This document shows positions 51,412-58,521 of a DNA stretch of 64,000 bases, in pieces. The notes beneath the pieces were generated by a model, which made no database searches, had not been told where the DNA came from, and saw nothing but the letters and a program-made list of their open reading frames with translations. The stretch covers positions 818,467 to 882,466 of the forward strand of contig OY729432.1 in the NCBI GenBank assembly GCA_963422385.1, in the 5' to 3' direction. The position numbers and the translations under genes were made by a program. Position 1 is the first letter of the stretch. Every line of letters begins with the position of its first letter. This DNA is from Candidatus Binatia bacterium (GTDB lineage: Bacteria > Desulfobacterota > Binatia > UBA9968 > JAJDTQ01).

Positions 51412-51717
51412 GGCCAGCCCCGAGACCGCGAGGGCCGCGTGTACGGGAGCGCCATCATAAGCTGCGGCAGGATGGGCCGCCGGTTGGCCAAGGAGATGAT
51501 CCGTCGCTCCTCTCCCTTGTGGCGTTCGCCCTTCAATCTGGCTTTACCCGGTGATTTCGGCTATAGGTAGCCCCCTTATGTCTCGGCATTCCGGCGTGCA
51601 GTGCCAGGTTGCAGTTGAGCAACGCCGTATCAAAGGGCACGACGCGCTGTCAACGAAGCATCTCGGCCTTGAATCACGCATCATGGAGCACGGGATTCGA
51701 CTTTCGCCCGGAGAGAG

Positions 51718-51939
51718 TTGCGCGTGATAAAGGTCGACCCCCACAAATGCGACGGCTGCGGCATCTGCGTCTACGACTGCGGCGCCGATGTCTTCCGCTT
51801 CACCAACAAGAAGGACAAGGTCTTTCCCTTCGGCAACAAGTACTGCGTCAACTGCTTCCTGTGCGAGCTCGTCTGCCCCGAAGACGCCATCGAGGTGGTG
51901 CTGCGGCCCAAGATGAAGCGCGCCGCCGCAAGCTCCTGA
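51718..51939 (+). CDS. 2x[4Fe-4S] ferredoxin
   Basis: CDGCGICVYDCG and CVNCFLCELVCP motifs. 73 aa. Confidence 0.75.
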   Translation: MRVIKVDPHKCDGCGICVYDCGADVFRFTNKKDKVFPFGNKYCVNCFLCELVCPEDAIEVVLRPKMKRAAASS

Positions 51940-51947
51940 GCGGACAC

Positions 51948-53624
51948 ATGACCGACTCCATCCCGACCACCGACTGCGACGTCCTCATCATCGGCGGCGG
52001 GTTGGCTGCCTGCATGGCGGCGCTGGAGGCGTCCAAGCGCAACATGGACGTGGTGCTGGTGGACAAGGGACGGCTCGGGCGAAGCGGCTCGAGCCCTACC
52101 TCCGGCGGGGTCCCGCAGGCAGCCTTCGGCCACGCCGACCCCCGCGACAGCAAGGAGATGCACTTCAAGGACACCATCGTCGGGGGCGACTTCATCCCGA
52201 ACCAGAAGATTGTCCGGGCCATCGTCAACGAGGTCACCGATCGGGTCATCGAGCTGGAGGAGATGGGGCTGCACTTCAAGAAGACGCCAGACGGCCGGAA
52301 ATTCCATCAGGAGAAACGTCTGGGCAGCTCCTACGCCCGCAGTTGCCCGCCGGTGGGCGGCAGCGTGGGGATGTTGGGCTCGCTGCGGAAAGAAGTATTC
52401 AACCGCGAGGTCCAGGTGCGCCAGTGGACCATGATCACGAAGCTACTGCGGCAGAACGGCCGGATCACCGGAGCCTTCGGCATCAACGTCCGGACCGGCG
52501 CTTACCAAGCATACCGCGCCCGGGCCGTGGTGCTGGCCGGGGGCAGCGCCATCGCCATCCAGAAGTACACCAGCGCCAACTTCCTGACCACGGGCGACGC
52601 CTACGTCGCGGCCTTCGAAATCGGCGCGCCCTTGGCCAACCTCGAGTTCCTGGAGTTCACGCTGATCCCGGCGCCCGGCGGCGAAGCCATCTCCATGGCC
52701 GGCCTGTCCCCTTTCACCAGCAAGGGCGGCCGCTTCTTCAACTCGCTGGGCGAACGGTTCCTGGAGCGGTACGATCCCGAGCGGCTGGAAGGCACGACCC
52801 GGGCCATCCTGGTGGGCGCCACCTACAAGGAAATGTTCGAGGGACGCGGCCCGGTCTACCTGGACCCGTCCTACATCCCGGACGAGAAGTGGGATGACGA
52901 AATCAGCTTCGAGTATTCCCCCAAGCTTGGCAAGGCCGGCGTCAACTGCCGCTCCGACCGGTTCGAGTGGGTGCCGGCGCTGCACACCTTCCTGGGCGGG
53001 CTTGACATCAACGAGCGGTGCGAGGTCCCAGGGGTGGAGGGTCTCTACGCGTCGGGTGAATCGGCCACCGGAACCCACGGCTCCAACCGGCTGTCCGGCA
53101 ACGCCATCGCCAGCGCCTTTGCGCTGGGCGCCCGGTCGGGCAAGTTCGCGGCCATCTACGGGGCGGACGCAGAGTTGGGCGAGGTGGACCCGGCGGAGAC
53201 CGCCGCGGAGGTCGCGAGGATCGAGGCCTTCAAGGGTGACGAAGGGCTGGATCCCACCGAGCTGCAACAGGAGATCAAGGAGATCGCGTGGGAGAGCACC
53301 GGCGTCGTGCGGAACGAGCGCGGGCTCACCACCGGACTGGAGCGCTTCCAGGAGATCCGCCGCGAAAAGGTCCCCCGGCTCAAGGCGGACAACATCCGCG
53401 CCCTCATCAAGTCCCTCGAATGCTCCAACCTTTCCTGGGTAGGCGAGATGGTCGCCCGCTGCGCCCTGGAACGCAAGGAATCCCGCGGCCAGCACACACG
53501 GGACGACTACCCGGAGAGGGACGACAAGAACTGCCTCAACTGGATCAAGGTGGAGAAGGACGGCGATCGGGTGAAGCCGATCATCAAGCCGATTCCGTTC
53601 GACGGGGCGGAGTTGAAACCCTGA
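51948..53624 (+). CDS. FAD-binding flavoprotein of the succinate dehydrogenase / fumarate reductase / AprA superfamily
   Basis: DVLIIGGGLAACMAA dinucleotide fold and the C-terminal RKESRGQHTRDDYPERDD signature. 558 aa. Starts 9 nt after the ferredoxin stop. Confidence 0.7.
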   Translation: MTDSIPTTDCDVLIIGGGLAACMAALEASKRNMDVVLVDKGRLGRSGSSPTSGGVPQAAFGHADPRDSKEMHFKDTIVGGDFIPNQKIVRAIVNEVTDRVIELEEMGLHFKKTPDGRKFHQEKRLGSSYARSCPPVGGSVGMLGSLRKEVFNREVQVRQWTMITKLLRQNGRITGAFGINVRTGAYQAYRARAVVLAGGSAIAIQKYTSANFLTTGDAYVAAFEIGAPLANLEFLEFTLIPAPGGEAISMAGLSPFTSKGGRFFNSLGERFLERYDPERLEGTTRAILVGATYKEMFEGRGPVYLDPSYIPDEKWDDEISFEYSPKLGKAGVNCRSDRFEWVPALHTFLGGLDINERCEVPGVEGLYASGESATGTHGSNRLSGNAIASAFALGARSGKFAAIYGADAELGEVDPAETAAEVARIEAFKGDEGLDPTELQQEIKEIAWESTGVVRNERGLTTGLERFQEIRREKVPRLKADNIRALIKSLECSNLSWVGEMVARCALERKESRGQHTRDDYPERDDKNCLNWIKVEKDGDRVKPIIKPIPFDGAELKP

Positions 53625-53672: not shown

Positions 53673-53962
53673 GTGTACGACTTCGAGTGGCATCCCGCCA
53701 AAGCCGCCAGCAACTTGCGCAAACACGGGCTTGATTTTAATCTCGCAGCCACGGTGTCCGAGGACCGACTCGCATCGACGGTGCGCGACGAAGACCACAG
53801 CGAGTCCGAGGACCGGTGGGTGACCGTAGGCGAATCCCGGAACACTGAGTTGTGGTTGTGTGTTACACTTCACGTCAAACCGACGACCGCACGACGGTGC
53901 GGATTATTTCGGCGCGACGGGCCACACCCAACGAACGACGCCAGTACGAGTCAGGCAAATGA
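53673..53962 (+). CDS. brnT: BrnT-family (DUF497) RNase toxin, reading frame interrupted by a shift in a GT repeat
   Basis: Frame 1 reads MYDFEWHPAKAASNLRKHGLDFNLAATVSEDRLASTVRDEDHSESEDRWVTVGESRNTE. At about 53846-53866 the BrnT-conserved end ...VVVVCYTSRQTDDRTTVRIISARRATPNERRQYESGK* continues in a different frame and stops at 53960-53962. The stop overlaps the next gene's ATG (ATGA). Confidence 0.6.
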
Positions 53963-56900
53963 AACGAGAGTACGACTTTTCCAAAGGTGAACGCGGCAAG
54001 TTCTACCGCCGGAACGCCAAGCTGAATATCCCACGCTCCACCGACAAGCCTGATTGGGCCGGGGCCGAAGGCCATCTTTGCGATTTCATGACCGCGGAGA
54101 CGGAAAAGACCCTCCGGGCCTACGGGGAACAACCGAGTCTGGTGACCGAGCATGCCAACCACGAACATGACACGGCCCACGGCGGCTATGCCCACCGGCA
54201 GCTCTTCGAGCTTGTCCAGAACAGCGCGGATGCTCTCGCCAACGCTCCCGATGGCAAAGGCATCCTGGTTCGCCTCACCGACGACTACCTCTATTGTGCC
54301 GATGACGGCAGAGCGATCGACGAGCCAGGTATCCAGGCGTTGATGTTCTCCCACATGTCGAGCAAACGAAACACCAGCGAGATCGGGCGGTTTGGGCTTG
54401 GCTTCAAGTCAGTGCTGGGAGTCACGAACGCCCCGGAGTTCTTCAGTCGGCCCGGTTCCTTTCGTTTCGACAAGAACCACGCGGCCAAGCGCATCGCCAA
54501 GGTCGCGCAAGCGGAACGCTACCCGGTGCTCCGGTTACCCATCCCCATCGATGCCCGTGAAGTGTCGGAGGACGACGAAGACCTTCGTGAACTCATGACC
54601 TGGGCAACTAACATCGTGCGGCTTCCGCTCAAACCGGGTGCTAGCGAGGACTTCGCTAAACAGGTTCAGGATTTCCCGCCAGAGTTCCTGCTGTTCGTCG
54701 ACCATGTCCGCTTTCTGAGCCTGGAACACAGGGAGCGAACGCGGGACTTCGTCCTCCAGAGATTAGACGGCGAGCTTCGACTCGACACGGACGAGGGATC
54801 TTCGCGCTGGAAATGCTTCAAGACCTACCACAGACTCTCTGTTGAAGCCCTCAAAGACCGGCGCTCGCTCGACGACAGCGGTGACGTGCCGATCTGGTGG
54901 GCGGCACCCCTGGACCGATTGGACTACCCAGGCTACTACTGGCACTTCTTCCCAACGAAGACGGCAAGTCTTCTGGCAGGTATTCTGAACGCACCCTGGA
55001 AGACCAACGAAGATCGCCAGAACCTGTTGCCGGGACCATACAACGACGAGTTGATCGATGTCGCGACGAGCATGGTGGCCAAGCGGTTGCCCGAGCTTGC
55101 CACTGACCAAGACCCCGCGTTGCACTTGGATGCCCTGCCGCGTCGGCATGAAGCCGGCGACACCGAGCACAGTGAGCGCCTCCGTGATCACTTGTATGAG
55201 AAACTGCGAAAAGGCCCCGTTGTCCCCGATCAGACCGGAACTTTGCGCAAAATCCAGGACATTTCCTATGCGCCCACAGCTCTGACTCAAGATCAAACGG
55301 GAGAAGCGTCGCTCAAGAAGTGGGCAGGCTTTGATCTGCGTCCAACGGATTGGCTTCACCACAGCACACTGACGCGTAATCGAATGGCCAAGGTCAACCA
55401 ACTTTTCGCCCAGGAACTTTTCGCCCAGGAACCTGCGTGGCAACAAGAGGCGCCTCGCGCATCCATAGCTAAGTGGTTGGAAGCTCTCATAGTAGAACGC
55501 GAGGGTCAAGCGACGATCATAGCCTCGAAGACGGCTCTTCAGGCGGCGGCAGCGATACCCGAGCGAAAGAGGACAGGAGAGCCGCTTGGCAACATTCTCC
55601 TGACGCAAAGCGACGACTGGTACGCGCCTGACCCGGAAAGCGTGTTCTTACCATCGTTCGATGATAGCGAAGGAGTTGACGACCGCTTGGTTCACAGGGC
55701 GCTGGTGTCTGATTCCGAGACTGCTGCGGCTCTGAACGTGCTGGGTATTAAGCACGTATCTCCCGAAGGCCGCTTTCGATCCCTTGCTAGGACATTGCTT
55801 ACTCGATGCACAAGCGAGCCGGACGAGACGCTGTGGGCCGACTTCTGGAGCGCGTCGCGTGCAGTGGAAACGGATCAGGCCTACATGATCGTCAAGAAAG
55901 TGACCGACCACGCATTGTCGATGACGACCGCCACATCCTGGCACGAGCAGGTCGTCATGACCATCAAGAAAGAGACCGACAAGGGACACGTCGATTGGAA
56001 CCCGTCGATTCATGCGCGTGCCCGGTCGGGCGATTGGCAACCCCTTCATTCGGTTCTGTTGCCTGGCGATATCGTGCCGAACGAAGGCGGCCGTGACCGT
56101 CGCGTCACAGTGGACACCGAGTTCCATGGTGCGGACTTGAAATTGCTCGACAGACTGGGGGCGACAGCCACGCCGAGGCAAGACCAGGATTTGTCGACCG
56201 ACCCTTGTTTCAAGTCGTTTTTGGTCGAATGCCGCCTTAAGTTCGTCGCCCGAGACCTTCCGAGGGACCCGCACTGGGGCAAACTGAATTTTGGTTCGAC
56301 AACAGGAAGTGGGCCGCTGCAAGTTCTGCCACTGCTCTCGAACGAAGGCAAGGCATGCTATACGGACGCCTTGTTGTCGCTGGAGACTTCCTTTGTCCGG
56401 TGGACAATGCGCCACGAAACCCAGAGCATCTACCCGCCACTCCCGTGTCAGAGTCCTGCCATCGCGTTGCTGCGCAAGCATGGCCGTATCCGTTGCGCTG
56501 GTGAATTCGTACCTTTAGCGGATGTGCTCGGTCCTCAACCGGCCAACCCTGCCGCACTGCAAGCTTTGCTGTCACACCGGATGGCGAACCGGATCAGGGA
56601 AGCCTTCGACCTTGCAGAACCGGTTGTGGAACCCGTCGGCGAAGAGGACTCGGTTCCTTTGACGGATGTGTGGCCCGGTTTGGCGCCGTACCTGACCGCG
56701 CACTCAAGGACATTCTCTCTCATCCGTTGCCAGCAACTTGCTGCTGGCGGCGGTACAAGTGGAGCCGAATGCATGCGGGTCGATGCCAGCATATACTTGG
56801 CTGGCACGGGTGATGAGGATTGCGACCTGCGGTTGGTTTCGCAGGAGCTCGGAATCGACCTGAATGACAACCAGCTTGAAGAGATCCTGCGATACGTTAC

Positions 56901-58521
56901 GCCGCAGGAAGTCGAGGCACAACGCGCGGCTATCCGGGAACTGACAACGGACGCCGAGAGGCTGTTCCACGCAGTAGGCGACGTCCGTCTGCGTTCATAT
57001 TTACCCGGATCGCTCTTGGCCGTGCTTGAGAGCGGCCGTGCGCCGCTGACTGGCGTTGAACTTGCGGAAGCGGCCATGGCCACATATCACACGGCGGCTC
57101 TCATGGAATATCGCCGGGCCTTGGATCACTTGGCCCCGCCCACGCGTTGGGCAGGGTCGCAGCCCGCGGTTGGCTTCGTCCAATCACTTGGATTCTCCGC
57201 GGAGTGGGCCGGACAACGGAGTTCACGCCATCCGCCGTTCCTGGAGGTAGAAGGCCCGTACTCGCTTCCGGAACTGCACGACTACCAGAAGTGCATCGTT
57301 GCCAGAGTGCGAGAGATGCTCTGCAATGGACGTATGGACGGTGGCGGGCGGCGCGGCATGATCAGTCTCCCAACCGGTTCGGGCAAGACACGCATCGCGG
57401 TGCAGGCCATCGTCGAGGCCATTTGCAGCGGTTTCACCGGCGGTGTCCTTTGGGTCGCAGACCGTGACGAATTGTGCGAACAGGCCGTGGAAGCATGGCG
57501 GCAGGTCTGGTCGAGCGTTGGCGCGGAAGGGAAGCGCCTGCGGGTTTCCAGGATGTGGGCCGGGCAGCCCCGACCTCTGCCGACAAGCGACCTCCACGTC
57601 ATTGTGGCGACGATACAGACGCTCAACGCCAAGCTGTCGAAGCAACCCGAAGATTACCGGTTCCTGGCTGACTTCAACTTGGTCGTTTTCGATGAGGCGC
57701 ATCGTTCCGTCGCGCCGACCTACACCTCTGTCATGCAAGAGATCGGACTGACCCGCTGGCAGCGAGGAAATGAACCCTTCCTGCTTGGCCTCACCGCGAC
57801 GCCTTACAGAGGGCACGATGAAGAGGAAACCGCCAGGCTGGTGCGTCGTTACGGCGGCAATCGCCTGGACGCCGGGGCGTTCGCCAACGACGAACCCTCA
57901 GAGGTCATTGGCGAGTTGCAGGAAATGAGCGTACTCGCGCACGCCGACCACCAGACCATCGAAGGCGGCGACTTCTCCCTGAGCCAGAATGAGTTGACGG
58001 AAATGCAGGCAATGCCCCATCCCGCATGGCTGCCACGCAGCATGGAGGACCGCATTGCCCGGGACGCGGACCGAACCAAACGCATTGTCGGTGCCTACAA
58101 GACCTTCGTTGGTAATGTTCACCGGGAGCAGTGGCCCACGCTGATCTTTGCCACTTCCGTGGAACATGCCAAGACGGTGGCAGCGCTGTTGAGCTCCGCA
58201 GGCGTCAGGTCCAGAGCCGTGAGTGGAGGGACAGAGACATCCGTTCGCCGAGACATTGTCGAGCGGTTTCGAGCGGGCCAGATCGACGTTCTCGTGAACT
58301 ACGGTGTATTCCGCGAAGGATTCGATGCGCCCAGGACACGGGTCATCATCGTGGCGCGGCCGGTCTACAGCCCGAACCTCTATTTCCAGATGATCGGCAG
58401 AGGGTTGCGGGGGCCGAAAAACGGAGGCAATGATCGCTGCCTCATCGTCAACGTGCGCGACAACATCGACAACTTCAACAAGGCGTTGGCCTTTTCCGAA
58501 CTGGATTGGCTCTGGGGGTAA
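53959..58521 (+). CDS. Large multidomain protein: BrnA-like N-terminal peptide, Hsp90/sacsin-type GHKL ATPase, about 900 aa unassigned, C-terminal SF2 DEAH helicase
   Basis: MKREYDFSKGERGKFY resembles the BrnA antitoxin N-terminus. Bergerat motifs follow: ELVQNSADA, YCADDGRAID and GRFGLGFKSV. The helicase motifs are I LPTGSGKT, II VFDEAH, III LTATP, V LVNYGVFREGFDAP and VI QMIGRGLRG. The ORF-track start is an upstream GTG at 53860. The ATG at 53959 is coupled to the brnT stop. Confidence 0.75.
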   Translation: MKREYDFSKGERGKFYRRNAKLNIPRSTDKPDWAGAEGHLCDFMTAETEKTLRAYGEQPSLVTEHANHEHDTAHGGYAHRQLFELVQNSADALANAPDGKGILVRLTDDYLYCADDGRAIDEPGIQALMFSHMSSKRNTSEIGRFGLGFKSVLGVTNAPEFFSRPGSFRFDKNHAAKRIAKVAQAERYPVLRLPIPIDAREVSEDDEDLRELMTWATNIVRLPLKPGASEDFAKQVQDFPPEFLLFVDHVRFLSLEHRERTRDFVLQRLDGELRLDTDEGSSRWKCFKTYHRLSVEALKDRRSLDDSGDVPIWWAAPLDRLDYPGYYWHFFPTKTASLLAGILNAPWKTNEDRQNLLPGPYNDELIDVATSMVAKRLPELATDQDPALHLDALPRRHEAGDTEHSERLRDHLYEKLRKGPVVPDQTGTLRKIQDISYAPTALTQDQTGEASLKKWAGFDLRPTDWLHHSTLTRNRMAKVNQLFAQELFAQEPAWQQEAPRASIAKWLEALIVEREGQATIIASKTALQAAAAIPERKRTGEPLGNILLTQSDDWYAPDPESVFLPSFDDSEGVDDRLVHRALVSDSETAAALNVLGIKHVSPEGRFRSLARTLLTRCTSEPDETLWADFWSASRAVETDQAYMIVKKVTDHALSMTTATSWHEQVVMTIKKETDKGHVDWNPSIHARARSGDWQPLHSVLLPGDIVPNEGGRDRRVTVDTEFHGADLKLLDRLGATATPRQDQDLSTDPCFKSFLVECRLKFVARDLPRDPHWGKLNFGSTTGSGPLQVLPLLSNEGKACYTDALLSLETSFVRWTMRHETQSIYPPLPCQSPAIALLRKHGRIRCAGEFVPLADVLGPQPANPAALQALLSHRMANRIREAFDLAEPVVEPVGEEDSVPLTDVWPGLAPYLTAHSRTFSLIRCQQLAAGGGTSGAECMRVDASIYLAGTGDEDCDLRLVSQELGIDLNDNQLEEILRYVTPQEVEAQRAAIRELTTDAERLFHAVGDVRLRSYLPGSLLAVLESGRAPLTGVELAEAAMATYHTAALMEYRRALDHLAPPTRWAGSQPAVGFVQSLGFSAEWAGQRSSRHPPFLEVEGPYSLPELHDYQKCIVARVREMLCNGRMDGGGRRGMISLPTGSGKTRIAVQAIVEAICSGFTGGVLWVADRDELCEQAVEAWRQVWSSVGAEGKRLRVSRMWAGQPRPLPTSDLHVIVATIQTLNAKLSKQPEDYRFLADFNLVVFDEAHRSVAPTYTSVMQEIGLTRWQRGNEPFLLGLTATPYRGHDEEETARLVRRYGGNRLDAGAFANDEPSEVIGELQEMSVLAHADHQTIEGGDFSLSQNELTEMQAMPHPAWLPRSMEDRIARDADRTKRIVGAYKTFVGNVHREQWPTLIFATSVEHAKTVAALLSSAGVRSRAVSGGTETSVRRDIVERFRAGQIDVLVNYGVFREGFDAPRTRVIIVARPVYSPNLYFQMIGRGLRGPKNGGNDRCLIVNVRDNIDNFNKALAFSELDWLWG

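Follow-up and report, generated by a model that had tools for sequence, protein, structure and literature searches.

A BrnA-type N-terminal peptide on a giant ATPase-helicase encoded next to a brnT toxin gene in a Binatia bacterium

In a 64,000-nucleotide stretch of DNA from Candidatus Binatia bacterium (contig OY729432.1, positions 818,467 to 882,466; hereafter, the window), a gene for a 1,520-residue ATPase-helicase directly follows a gene for a BrnT toxin, and its product begins with a 25-residue peptide that sequence comparison shows to be homologous, far beyond chance, to the N-termini of BrnA antitoxins. We consider it probable that this peptide is a BrnT-binding segment derived from BrnA and that the giant enzyme substitutes for the antitoxin. 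The head of a short BrnA would thus have been retained, with a variable linker, a Tiamat/sacsin-like ATPase and a superfamily 2 (SF2) helicase in place of its ribbon-helix-helix (RHH) domain, and brnT and the large gene would together form a two-gene module resembling a toxin-antitoxin system.

Both genes lie on the forward strand. The brnT gene, whose product belongs to the RelE superfamily of RNase toxins (Pfam BrnT_toxin), extends from a GTG start to a TGA stop at positions 53673 to 53962, with a broken frame that is described below. The large gene occupies positions 53959 to 58521 (1,520 amino acids plus stop in the list of open reading frames, ORFs). The brnT stop codon is at 53960 to 53962 and the ATG of the large gene at 53959 to 53961, the A of the ATG standing just ahead of the TGA, and the resulting ATGA overlap (53959 to 53962) couples the two genes. 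The same 4-nucleotide overlap is present in 10 loci with an intact brnT, and in others in which brnT is degraded, and is shared by most of the related loci that carry both the peptide motif and brnT. The large protein, which is identical to the public database entry P0001, has the N-terminus MKREYDFSKGERGKFY, of which residues 1-25 (53959 to 54033), MKREYDFSKGERGKFYRRNAKLNIP, constitute the BrnA-type peptide. An alternative start at Met45 was ruled out, as homologues share the Met1 start and its overlap with brnT.

When 1.84 billion representatives were searched exhaustively with phmmer, residues 1-30 matched 142 of them at E<=1e-3, with a best E of 1.8e-8; nearly all are 35-140 amino acids long and aligned at their own N-terminus. 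The consensus of these small proteins reads MKKEYDFSKGERGKFYRxNAKLNLP, followed by IYLDxxV…VVNxLL, the RHH domain. Residues 1-25 of the large protein are 70-84% identical to the N-termini of short BrnA proteins, and the two cease to be alignable at Pro25, exactly where the RHH beta-strand starts (between LP and IYLD). An independent profile was constructed from residues 1-25 of 133 small proteins, with the large family excluded; the window protein scored 64 bits against it (E=1.5e-18), and decoy ORFs did no better than E=8.5. When the head consensus of the small BrnA proteins, MKKEYDFSKGERGKFYRPNAKLNLP, was compared with all six frames of the window, the sole match was to positions 53959 to 54033 (E=4e-13), the runner-up having E=1.2. 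A profile combining 18 small proteins with the window N-terminus retrieved RHH proteins from the PDB, for example ParG and VapB26. From the large family, the exhaustive search returned only the fragments P0128, P0148, P0213 and P0214 and no full-length representative of ~1,500 amino acids; presumably, the representatives of this family at 50% identity clustering lack the head.

The initial annotation, which had recognized the M-K-x-E-Y-D-F-S motif, taken it as typical of BrnT partners and placed it at the ATG overlapping the brnT stop, had suggested Pfam PF14384 as a check on the N-terminus. That check gave no support: neither residues 1-60 nor the whole large protein matched PF14384 or an NCBIfam model of BrnA, and nothing relevant came from Pfam and NCBIfam scans of N-terminal stretches of 60-81 residues. 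These models cover mainly the RHH part of BrnA, and the same libraries equally miss a real BrnT partner of 66 amino acids on a Leptospira plasmid, a protein that starts MRKEYDFSKGKRG, ends in an RHH-like segment and is encoded directly after an annotated BrnT. Because a true partner escapes them, the curated profiles are uninformative here, and we do not count the PF14384 miss against homology. The typical character of the motif and its position at the overlap are both confirmed. On viral contigs, 27 of 30 small ORFs starting with M[KR]xEYDFS have a BrnT homologue upstream, ending <=60 nucleotides from the ORF start in 24 cases, and the three motif-bearing proteins that were scanned score 35-48 bits with Pfam BrnA_antitoxin (PF14384), for which the cut-off is 26.1. 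Annotated or recognizable BrnT genes also lie directly upstream of motif ORFs on Leptospira and Kovacikia plasmids; tblastn of the peptide against plasmids yielded weak matches only (E 2-6), from which the Leptospira brnT neighbour was found.

The N-termini of BrnA proteins carry one of two signatures, E-Y-D-F-S-x-[AG]-x-R-G-x-[FY] in the short type and D-W-S-x-A-V-R-G-x-F in the long type, and the window protein fits a BrnA N-terminal segment. In the BrnA of Acinetobacter baumannii, a named plasmid antitoxin of the long type, a related motif, DIPEITDWSNAVRQNQFYRP, is internal and stands just ahead of the RHH domain. Natural single-chain BrnT-BrnA fusions, described by Gerdes (mBio 2025, PMC11980606), show that the peptide is a modular unit kept beside BrnT, since in these proteins, of which P0273 is an example, MxxEYDFSKxERGKFY comes directly after the BrnT domain. 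As the short BrnA of 66 amino acids consists of the 25-residue head and the RHH domain only, the head is, by elimination, the best candidate for toxin recognition. In a further protein, P0218 (311 amino acids), a short BrnA with head and RHH domain is apparently joined to a histidine-kinase-like segment (…HDIKNPLSNVKLSLERL…), either as a real fusion or as an artefact of gene calling.

Downstream of Pro25, a poorly conserved linker (residues 26-41; 54034 to 54081) stands where a short BrnA would have its RHH domain, and the alignment with small BrnA proteins fails at this point. The linker leads into a sacsin/Hsp90-like (GHKL) ATPase module (residues 42-452; 54082 to 55314), with a sacsin-like HATPase signature at residues ~80-173. 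Tiamat TmtA has a homologous module at its N-terminus, residues 42-452 of the window protein matching positions 11-423 of the PADLOC profile PDLC03964 at E=1.9e-53; NCBIfam P_loop_sacsin (E=4.9e-17) and, weakly, Pfam SACS and HATPase_c also recognize this part of the window protein. The middle region (residues 453-1104; 55315 to 57270) is the least conserved part of the protein (majority fraction 0.59), and a Pfam scan found no recognizable domain in it. The SF2 helicase core that follows (residues 1105-1502; 57271 to 58464) is of the RadD/Hef/HsdR/RIG-I-like kind. Pfam ResIII (E=1.5e-26) and Helicase_C (E=3.6e-14) match over residues 1105-1484, as does NCBIfam RadD in this core; both RecA-like lobes are present, a Walker A motif (PTGSGKT) and a DEAH motif can be read in the translation, and the PDB structure of RadD (6jde) is matched at E=3.7e-19. 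With Pfam and NCBIfam, neither an RHH family nor any DNA-binding repressor domain was recognized anywhere in the 1,520 residues. The earlier statement that the protein runs on into an ATPase-helicase without an RHH domain is therefore correct.

A search with the whole protein returned many homologues of ~1,480-1,520 amino acids that are 56-78% identical, and 103 of the best 120 start with M[KR]xEYDF…. We compared 15 genomic and 50 metagenomic loci, 60 of which could be assessed for both motif and toxin gene. A brnT gene, or a recognizable remnant of one, lies directly upstream in 21 of the 22 motif-bearing loci versus 1 of the 38 motif-less loci (Fisher's exact p=6e-14, or 3e-11 with near-duplicates collapsed). 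The hosts include Binatia, Acidobacteriota, Vicinamibacterales, Pseudomonadales, other Gammaproteobacteria, Gemmatimonadota and Spirochaetia, and the window locus is most similar to those of other Binatia. A one-off local fusion or deletion was ruled out by the retention of the peptide in more than 100 homologues. The graft of an antitoxin N-terminus onto the enzyme, as the initial annotation had it, is borne out by the halt in similarity at residue 25, but it is a family-wide, brnT-linked feature and not a local one.

The single motif-less locus with a toxin gene, L023, has an intact brnT followed by a large protein with a long N-terminus (DIPEVRDWSGAVRGLF, …LPDDEIDTTDIPEVRDWSGAVRGLF…) that resembles the long BrnA type, as represented by the A. 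baumannii antitoxin and by chain B of PDB entry 7VD7. In a neighbour-joining tree, L023 stands apart from the motif-bearing clade. Since a long BrnA-type head and brnT are thus found together in a different clade, the combination of brnT and a BrnA head seems to have been captured at least twice by this enzyme family, independently in L023.

The peptide is conserved at the level of its amino acids. In an alignment of 103 homologues, the mean majority fraction is 0.81 over residues 1-16, 0.82 for the HATPase core, 0.79 for the helicase and 0.69 for the whole protein; for residues 26-45 it is 0.51. Tyr5 is invariant, with Glu4, Asp6, Phe7, Ser8, Gly13, Phe15 and Pro25 almost so, and alignment of the window protein with 18 small BrnA proteins shows these positions to be likewise invariant or close to it. 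At 19 loci, Glu4, Tyr5, Asp6, Phe7, Ser8, Arg12, Gly13 and Phe15 are each encoded by two to four synonymous codons, for example TCC, TCG, TCT and AGC for Ser8 and CGC, CGG, CGT and CGA for Arg12. A conserved RNA element was ruled out by this variation. Because invariant residues use varied synonymous codons, selection, as judged from these alignments, acts on the amino acids of the peptide and not merely on the context of the start codon.

These data bear directly on the view that the first 25 codons are a vestige of the fusion event, kept for the start codon and translational coupling, with a functionless peptide. Such a vestige would sit comfortably with the frequent death of the toxin gene and with a structural model in which the peptide does not dock (both described below). 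Nevertheless, the eight residues just listed with their codons, Arg12 among them, are invariant in the large family and also (nearly) invariant in the small BrnA proteins, although their codons vary. The conservation of residues 1-16 is close to that of the catalytic domains, with free drift over the 20 residues that follow. Moreover, some lineages that have lost the peptide start at the DWAG region, which implies that the peptide is unnecessary for expression. We regard a mere vestige as highly improbable.

A toxin-docking role for the peptide is indirectly supported by its co-occurrence with an upstream brnT, by selection at the amino-acid level and by a deposited structure, PDB 7VD7 ('Toxin-Antitoxin complex from Salmonella enterica serovar Typhimurium'), which pairs a BrnT homologue with a piece of antitoxin that lacks the RHH domain. 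Chain A, the BrnT homologue, matches the repaired window BrnT in sequence at E=3.9e-13. A Foldseek comparison of the model of repaired BrnT plus peptide with 7vd7_A gave 38% identity, E=5e-10, a root-mean-square deviation of 1.6 and a template modelling score of 0.92 by target length or 0.65 by query length. Chain B is a 44-residue, RHH-less antitoxin that ends ...WSEAVRGKFFRP (tail …DIPASEDGQWSEAVRGKFFRP). Its tail is identical to FSKGERGKFYR of the window protein at 6 of 11 positions (pairwise E=0.002), SKGERGKFYRR also being aligned, and the 133-protein profile finds 7vd7_B at E=0.005, clear of decoys. Chain B is of the long BrnA type, with ~28 extra residues ahead of the motif, unlike the window peptide. 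In the PDB, neither the peptide by itself nor the Leptospira protein retrieved anything relevant, and 7vd7_B surfaced only with a BrnA query of the long type.

In the window, in-frame residues 1-66 of BrnT match Pfam BrnT_toxin (PF04365) at E=8e-15 (55.3 bits, cut-off 34.5), and the C-terminal third continues in another frame as VVVVCYTSRQ...RIISARRATPNERRQYESGK up to the stop codon (the ending is also given as …VVVVCYTSRQTDDRTTVRIISARRATPNERRQYESGK). One T is missing between positions 53852 and 53853, the window reading GTTG-TGG where three relatives with an intact gene (L001, L002 and L017) read GTTGTTGG; an alignment of these four genes has a mean column identity of 91%. Unless this is a sequencing error, brnT of the window is a pseudogene, and the lesion is recent. 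Because of the 1-nucleotide deletion, the module in the window is probably toxin-less, its large protein working alone as do the peptide-less relatives.

Among the 22 motif-bearing loci, brnT looks intact in 11, is ambiguous in three or four and is disrupted in about 7. The clear cases are a frameshift in the window, a stop in L003, truncations in L004 and L014, and disruptions in L009, L011 and L015; the peptide is kept in every one of these loci. The large gene has decayed too in L004, L014 and L015. Elsewhere it has suffered in-frame internal deletions (L013:6001-7539 and L021:7001-8674), in which residues ~420-1415/1438 are gone; what remains is the peptide with the ATPase module and the C-terminal tail, and brnT is intact in L013. 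This asymmetry of decay is what a toxin/neutralizer pair predicts. In the Acidobacteriota locus L009 (5600-6004), brnT has been cut to its last codons (…EYESRR and stop) with the ATG overlap kept, and a HicB-like ORF lies just upstream.

Retention of the peptide beside toxin genes that are dead or nearly lost (the seven loci just named) could also be explained if it were an orphan tag that soaks up BrnT encoded elsewhere, on chromosomal brnTA loci, plasmids or phages, independently of its neighbour; BrnT/BrnA pairs are indeed common on plasmids and viral contigs. However, strict adjacency and the ATGA overlap in most loci point to a toxin encoded in cis, and no second brnT is present in the 64-kilobase window. 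Dead copies of brnT also still look recent, that of the window being one base short of three relatives. An orphan tag of this kind is, in our estimation, quite improbable.

Several observations weigh against, or at any rate do not favour, the peptide as a BrnT-binding segment that works in the service of a defence module. The sequence similarity between the peptide and 7vd7_B is modest (E=0.002-0.005). As a structural proxy, the repaired window BrnT was fused directly to residues 1-38 and modelled with AlphaFold2 as a single chain, not as a multimer, from a 97-row alignment that included 15 natural fusions. The BrnT part was modelled with a predicted local distance difference test (pLDDT) score of 82-92, the peptide scored 37-42, and no confident docking was obtained in this proxy; a single-sequence model of the chimera of BrnT and peptide had a pLDDT of 41. 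Furthermore, brnT is broken in the window and in roughly a third of related loci with the peptide retained; the large protein can therefore do without BrnT, and another role for the peptide is conceivable. The toxin itself is also unusual in one subclade. At BrnT residues 7-11 (53691 to 53705), the window, L001, L002 and L017 have WHPAK where most BrnT proteins have WD[PE]xK. In the BrnT of Brucella abortus, Asp6, Glu7, Lys9, Arg41 and Glu78 are reported to be necessary for RNase activity (PMC5086665). By our own reading of the alignment, the equivalents of the lysine, the arginine and a glutamate are conserved (K10, R48 and E89 of the alignment), and the equivalent of Asp6 is a histidine in these four; because of this replacement, toxin activity may have been changed or lost in the subclade. 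Finally, the surroundings of the module are housekeeping-like, with no obvious defence island. Upstream of brnT is a gene for a flavin adenine dinucleotide-dependent flavoprotein, which visual inspection of its translation places in the succinate dehydrogenase/aspartate oxidase type, itself preceded by a small 4Fe-4S ferredoxin-like ORF (window 51609 to 53624 and 51718 to 51939, both on the forward strand), and the same flavoprotein gene lies upstream of the module in the Binatia locus L014.

If the peptide is nevertheless a segment that recognizes BrnT, it would bind and neutralize the toxin in the manner of the RHH-less antitoxin piece in 7VD7, and BrnT would thereby be leashed to the ATPase-helicase. 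More speculatively, the ATPase-helicase might sense foreign nucleic acid and then release or activate the RNase, leading to abortive infection. The head peptide would then be a portable leash, one that has at least twice made a selfish brnTA pair serve as effector arm to an immune sensor, the Tiamat-like ATPase-helicase. We advance this larger scenario tentatively, doubting it somewhat more than we favour it. There are precedents for its logic: in PARIS (AriA-AriB) and PrrC-EcoprrI, a large ATPase or restriction complex keeps a toxic RNase silent until infection is sensed, and release of the RNase has been demonstrated. By analogy, we propose that the module in the window may share this working principle, release being hypothetical here. 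To our knowledge, the proteins of those two systems are unrelated to the ones in the window, and neither system tethers its RNase by a type II antitoxin peptide.

A simpler arrangement would be plain addiction, in which the peptide neutralizes BrnT with no sensing or release, brnT makes the loss of a big and expensive gene costly, and the enzyme functions independently of the RNase. Peptide-less relatives do exist and appear intact, so that the function of the enzyme is evidently autonomous; brnT often decays without loss of the large gene, as would a selfish toxin that is neutral once broken; and no third conserved gene was found beside the peptide-bearing clade. Yet capture at least twice by the same enzyme family, with L023 as the second case, suggests functional fit over hitch-hiking, and relatives of the ATPase module bear nucleases in cis (PD-(D/E)XK in Tiamat, HEPN in sacsin), a hint that such ATPases work with a nuclease partner. 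For these two reasons, we prefer sensing and release to addiction alone, which we judge unlikely.

Comparison with characterized systems helps to define what is unusual about the module. It shares with BrnT/BrnA, whose prototype is from Brucella abortus and whose short BrnA (60-90 amino acids) starts with MKxEYDFS, the toxin-first order, the ATGA-type overlap and the toxin family. It differs in that the RHH domain is replaced by ~1,480 residues of ATPase and helicase, and in that the toxin gene of the window is frameshifted. The RHH domain of BrnA dimerizes, binds the promoter and autoregulates the operon (PMC5086665, PMC11980606). A type II system is expected to have a small, labile, autoregulating antitoxin, whereas the partner in the window has 1,520 amino acids and no recognizable DNA-binding repressor domain. 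The BrnT-BrnA fusions keep an RHH or helix-turn-helix domain and join toxin to antitoxin; in the window, the two proteins are separate and it is the DNA-binding domain that has been swapped.

Tiamat TmtA and the window protein are both large single proteins of ~1,500 amino acids built on a sacsin-like ATPase. However, only the first ~420-550 positions of the Tiamat profiles, which are 1,300-1,780 long, find a match, and the C-terminus of the window protein is an SF2 helicase. Tiamat has been listed among single-gene systems that contain a PD-(D/E)XK nuclease structure (bioRxiv 10.1101/2024.10.26.620412), unlike the window protein, which has no recognizable nuclease of its own; no link between Tiamat and BrnT has been reported. 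Animal sacsin carries Hsp90-like ATPase repeats and, at its C-terminus, a HEPN domain, an RNase-type domain of toxin-antitoxin origin (PMC3710099), and thus likewise couples a sacsin-type ATPase to an RNase-family domain derived from a toxin-antitoxin system. In sacsin, the HEPN domain is fused covalently and the protein is eukaryotic and chaperone-related, whereas the window protein has a putative docking peptide for a separate RNase of the RelE superfamily.

Other members of the enzyme family carry different attachments. In the homologues P0089 and P0094, another N-terminal extension of ~65 residues, MKENLSESQFALCVENSECEDLEKQKLYQILPDETAAQEGYLRIIDESEEDYLYPQSYFIL, replaces the BrnA head; it has no meaningful Pfam match and may be another partner-docking module. 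In a distant clade that lacks the peptide (43-47% identical), a gene of at least 568 amino acids is conserved downstream (L037:11328-13031 and equivalents in L038-L064), with a weak match to DEAD helicases (E=0.017), and this clade may represent a different two-gene system.

Published work deals with BrnTA, with fusions of BrnT to BrnA and with BrnT-like genes that lie upstream of CoCoNuT systems (PMC11980606, PMC11090510). In the searchable literature on Tiamat/TmtA, on BrnT with helicases and on sacsin, helicases and toxin-antitoxin systems, the coverage of which is incomplete, we met with no description of a Tiamat-like ATPase-helicase that bears a BrnA head. In current annotations, the large proteins go simply by 'DEAD/DEAH box helicase', and the short BrnA proteins frequently by 'hypothetical'. 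Our results indicate a module derived from a type II toxin-antitoxin system with a domain-swapped antitoxin, in which the toxin-recognition segment is reusable as a short tag on an unrelated machine. If this tag does bind BrnT, it would be a compact, genetically defined element of 25 residues for a toxin family whose neutralization has barely been studied. If the role in immunity is also true, brnT and its giant partner would constitute an uncatalogued two-gene defence system founded on the poorly understood Tiamat/sacsin-like ATPase.

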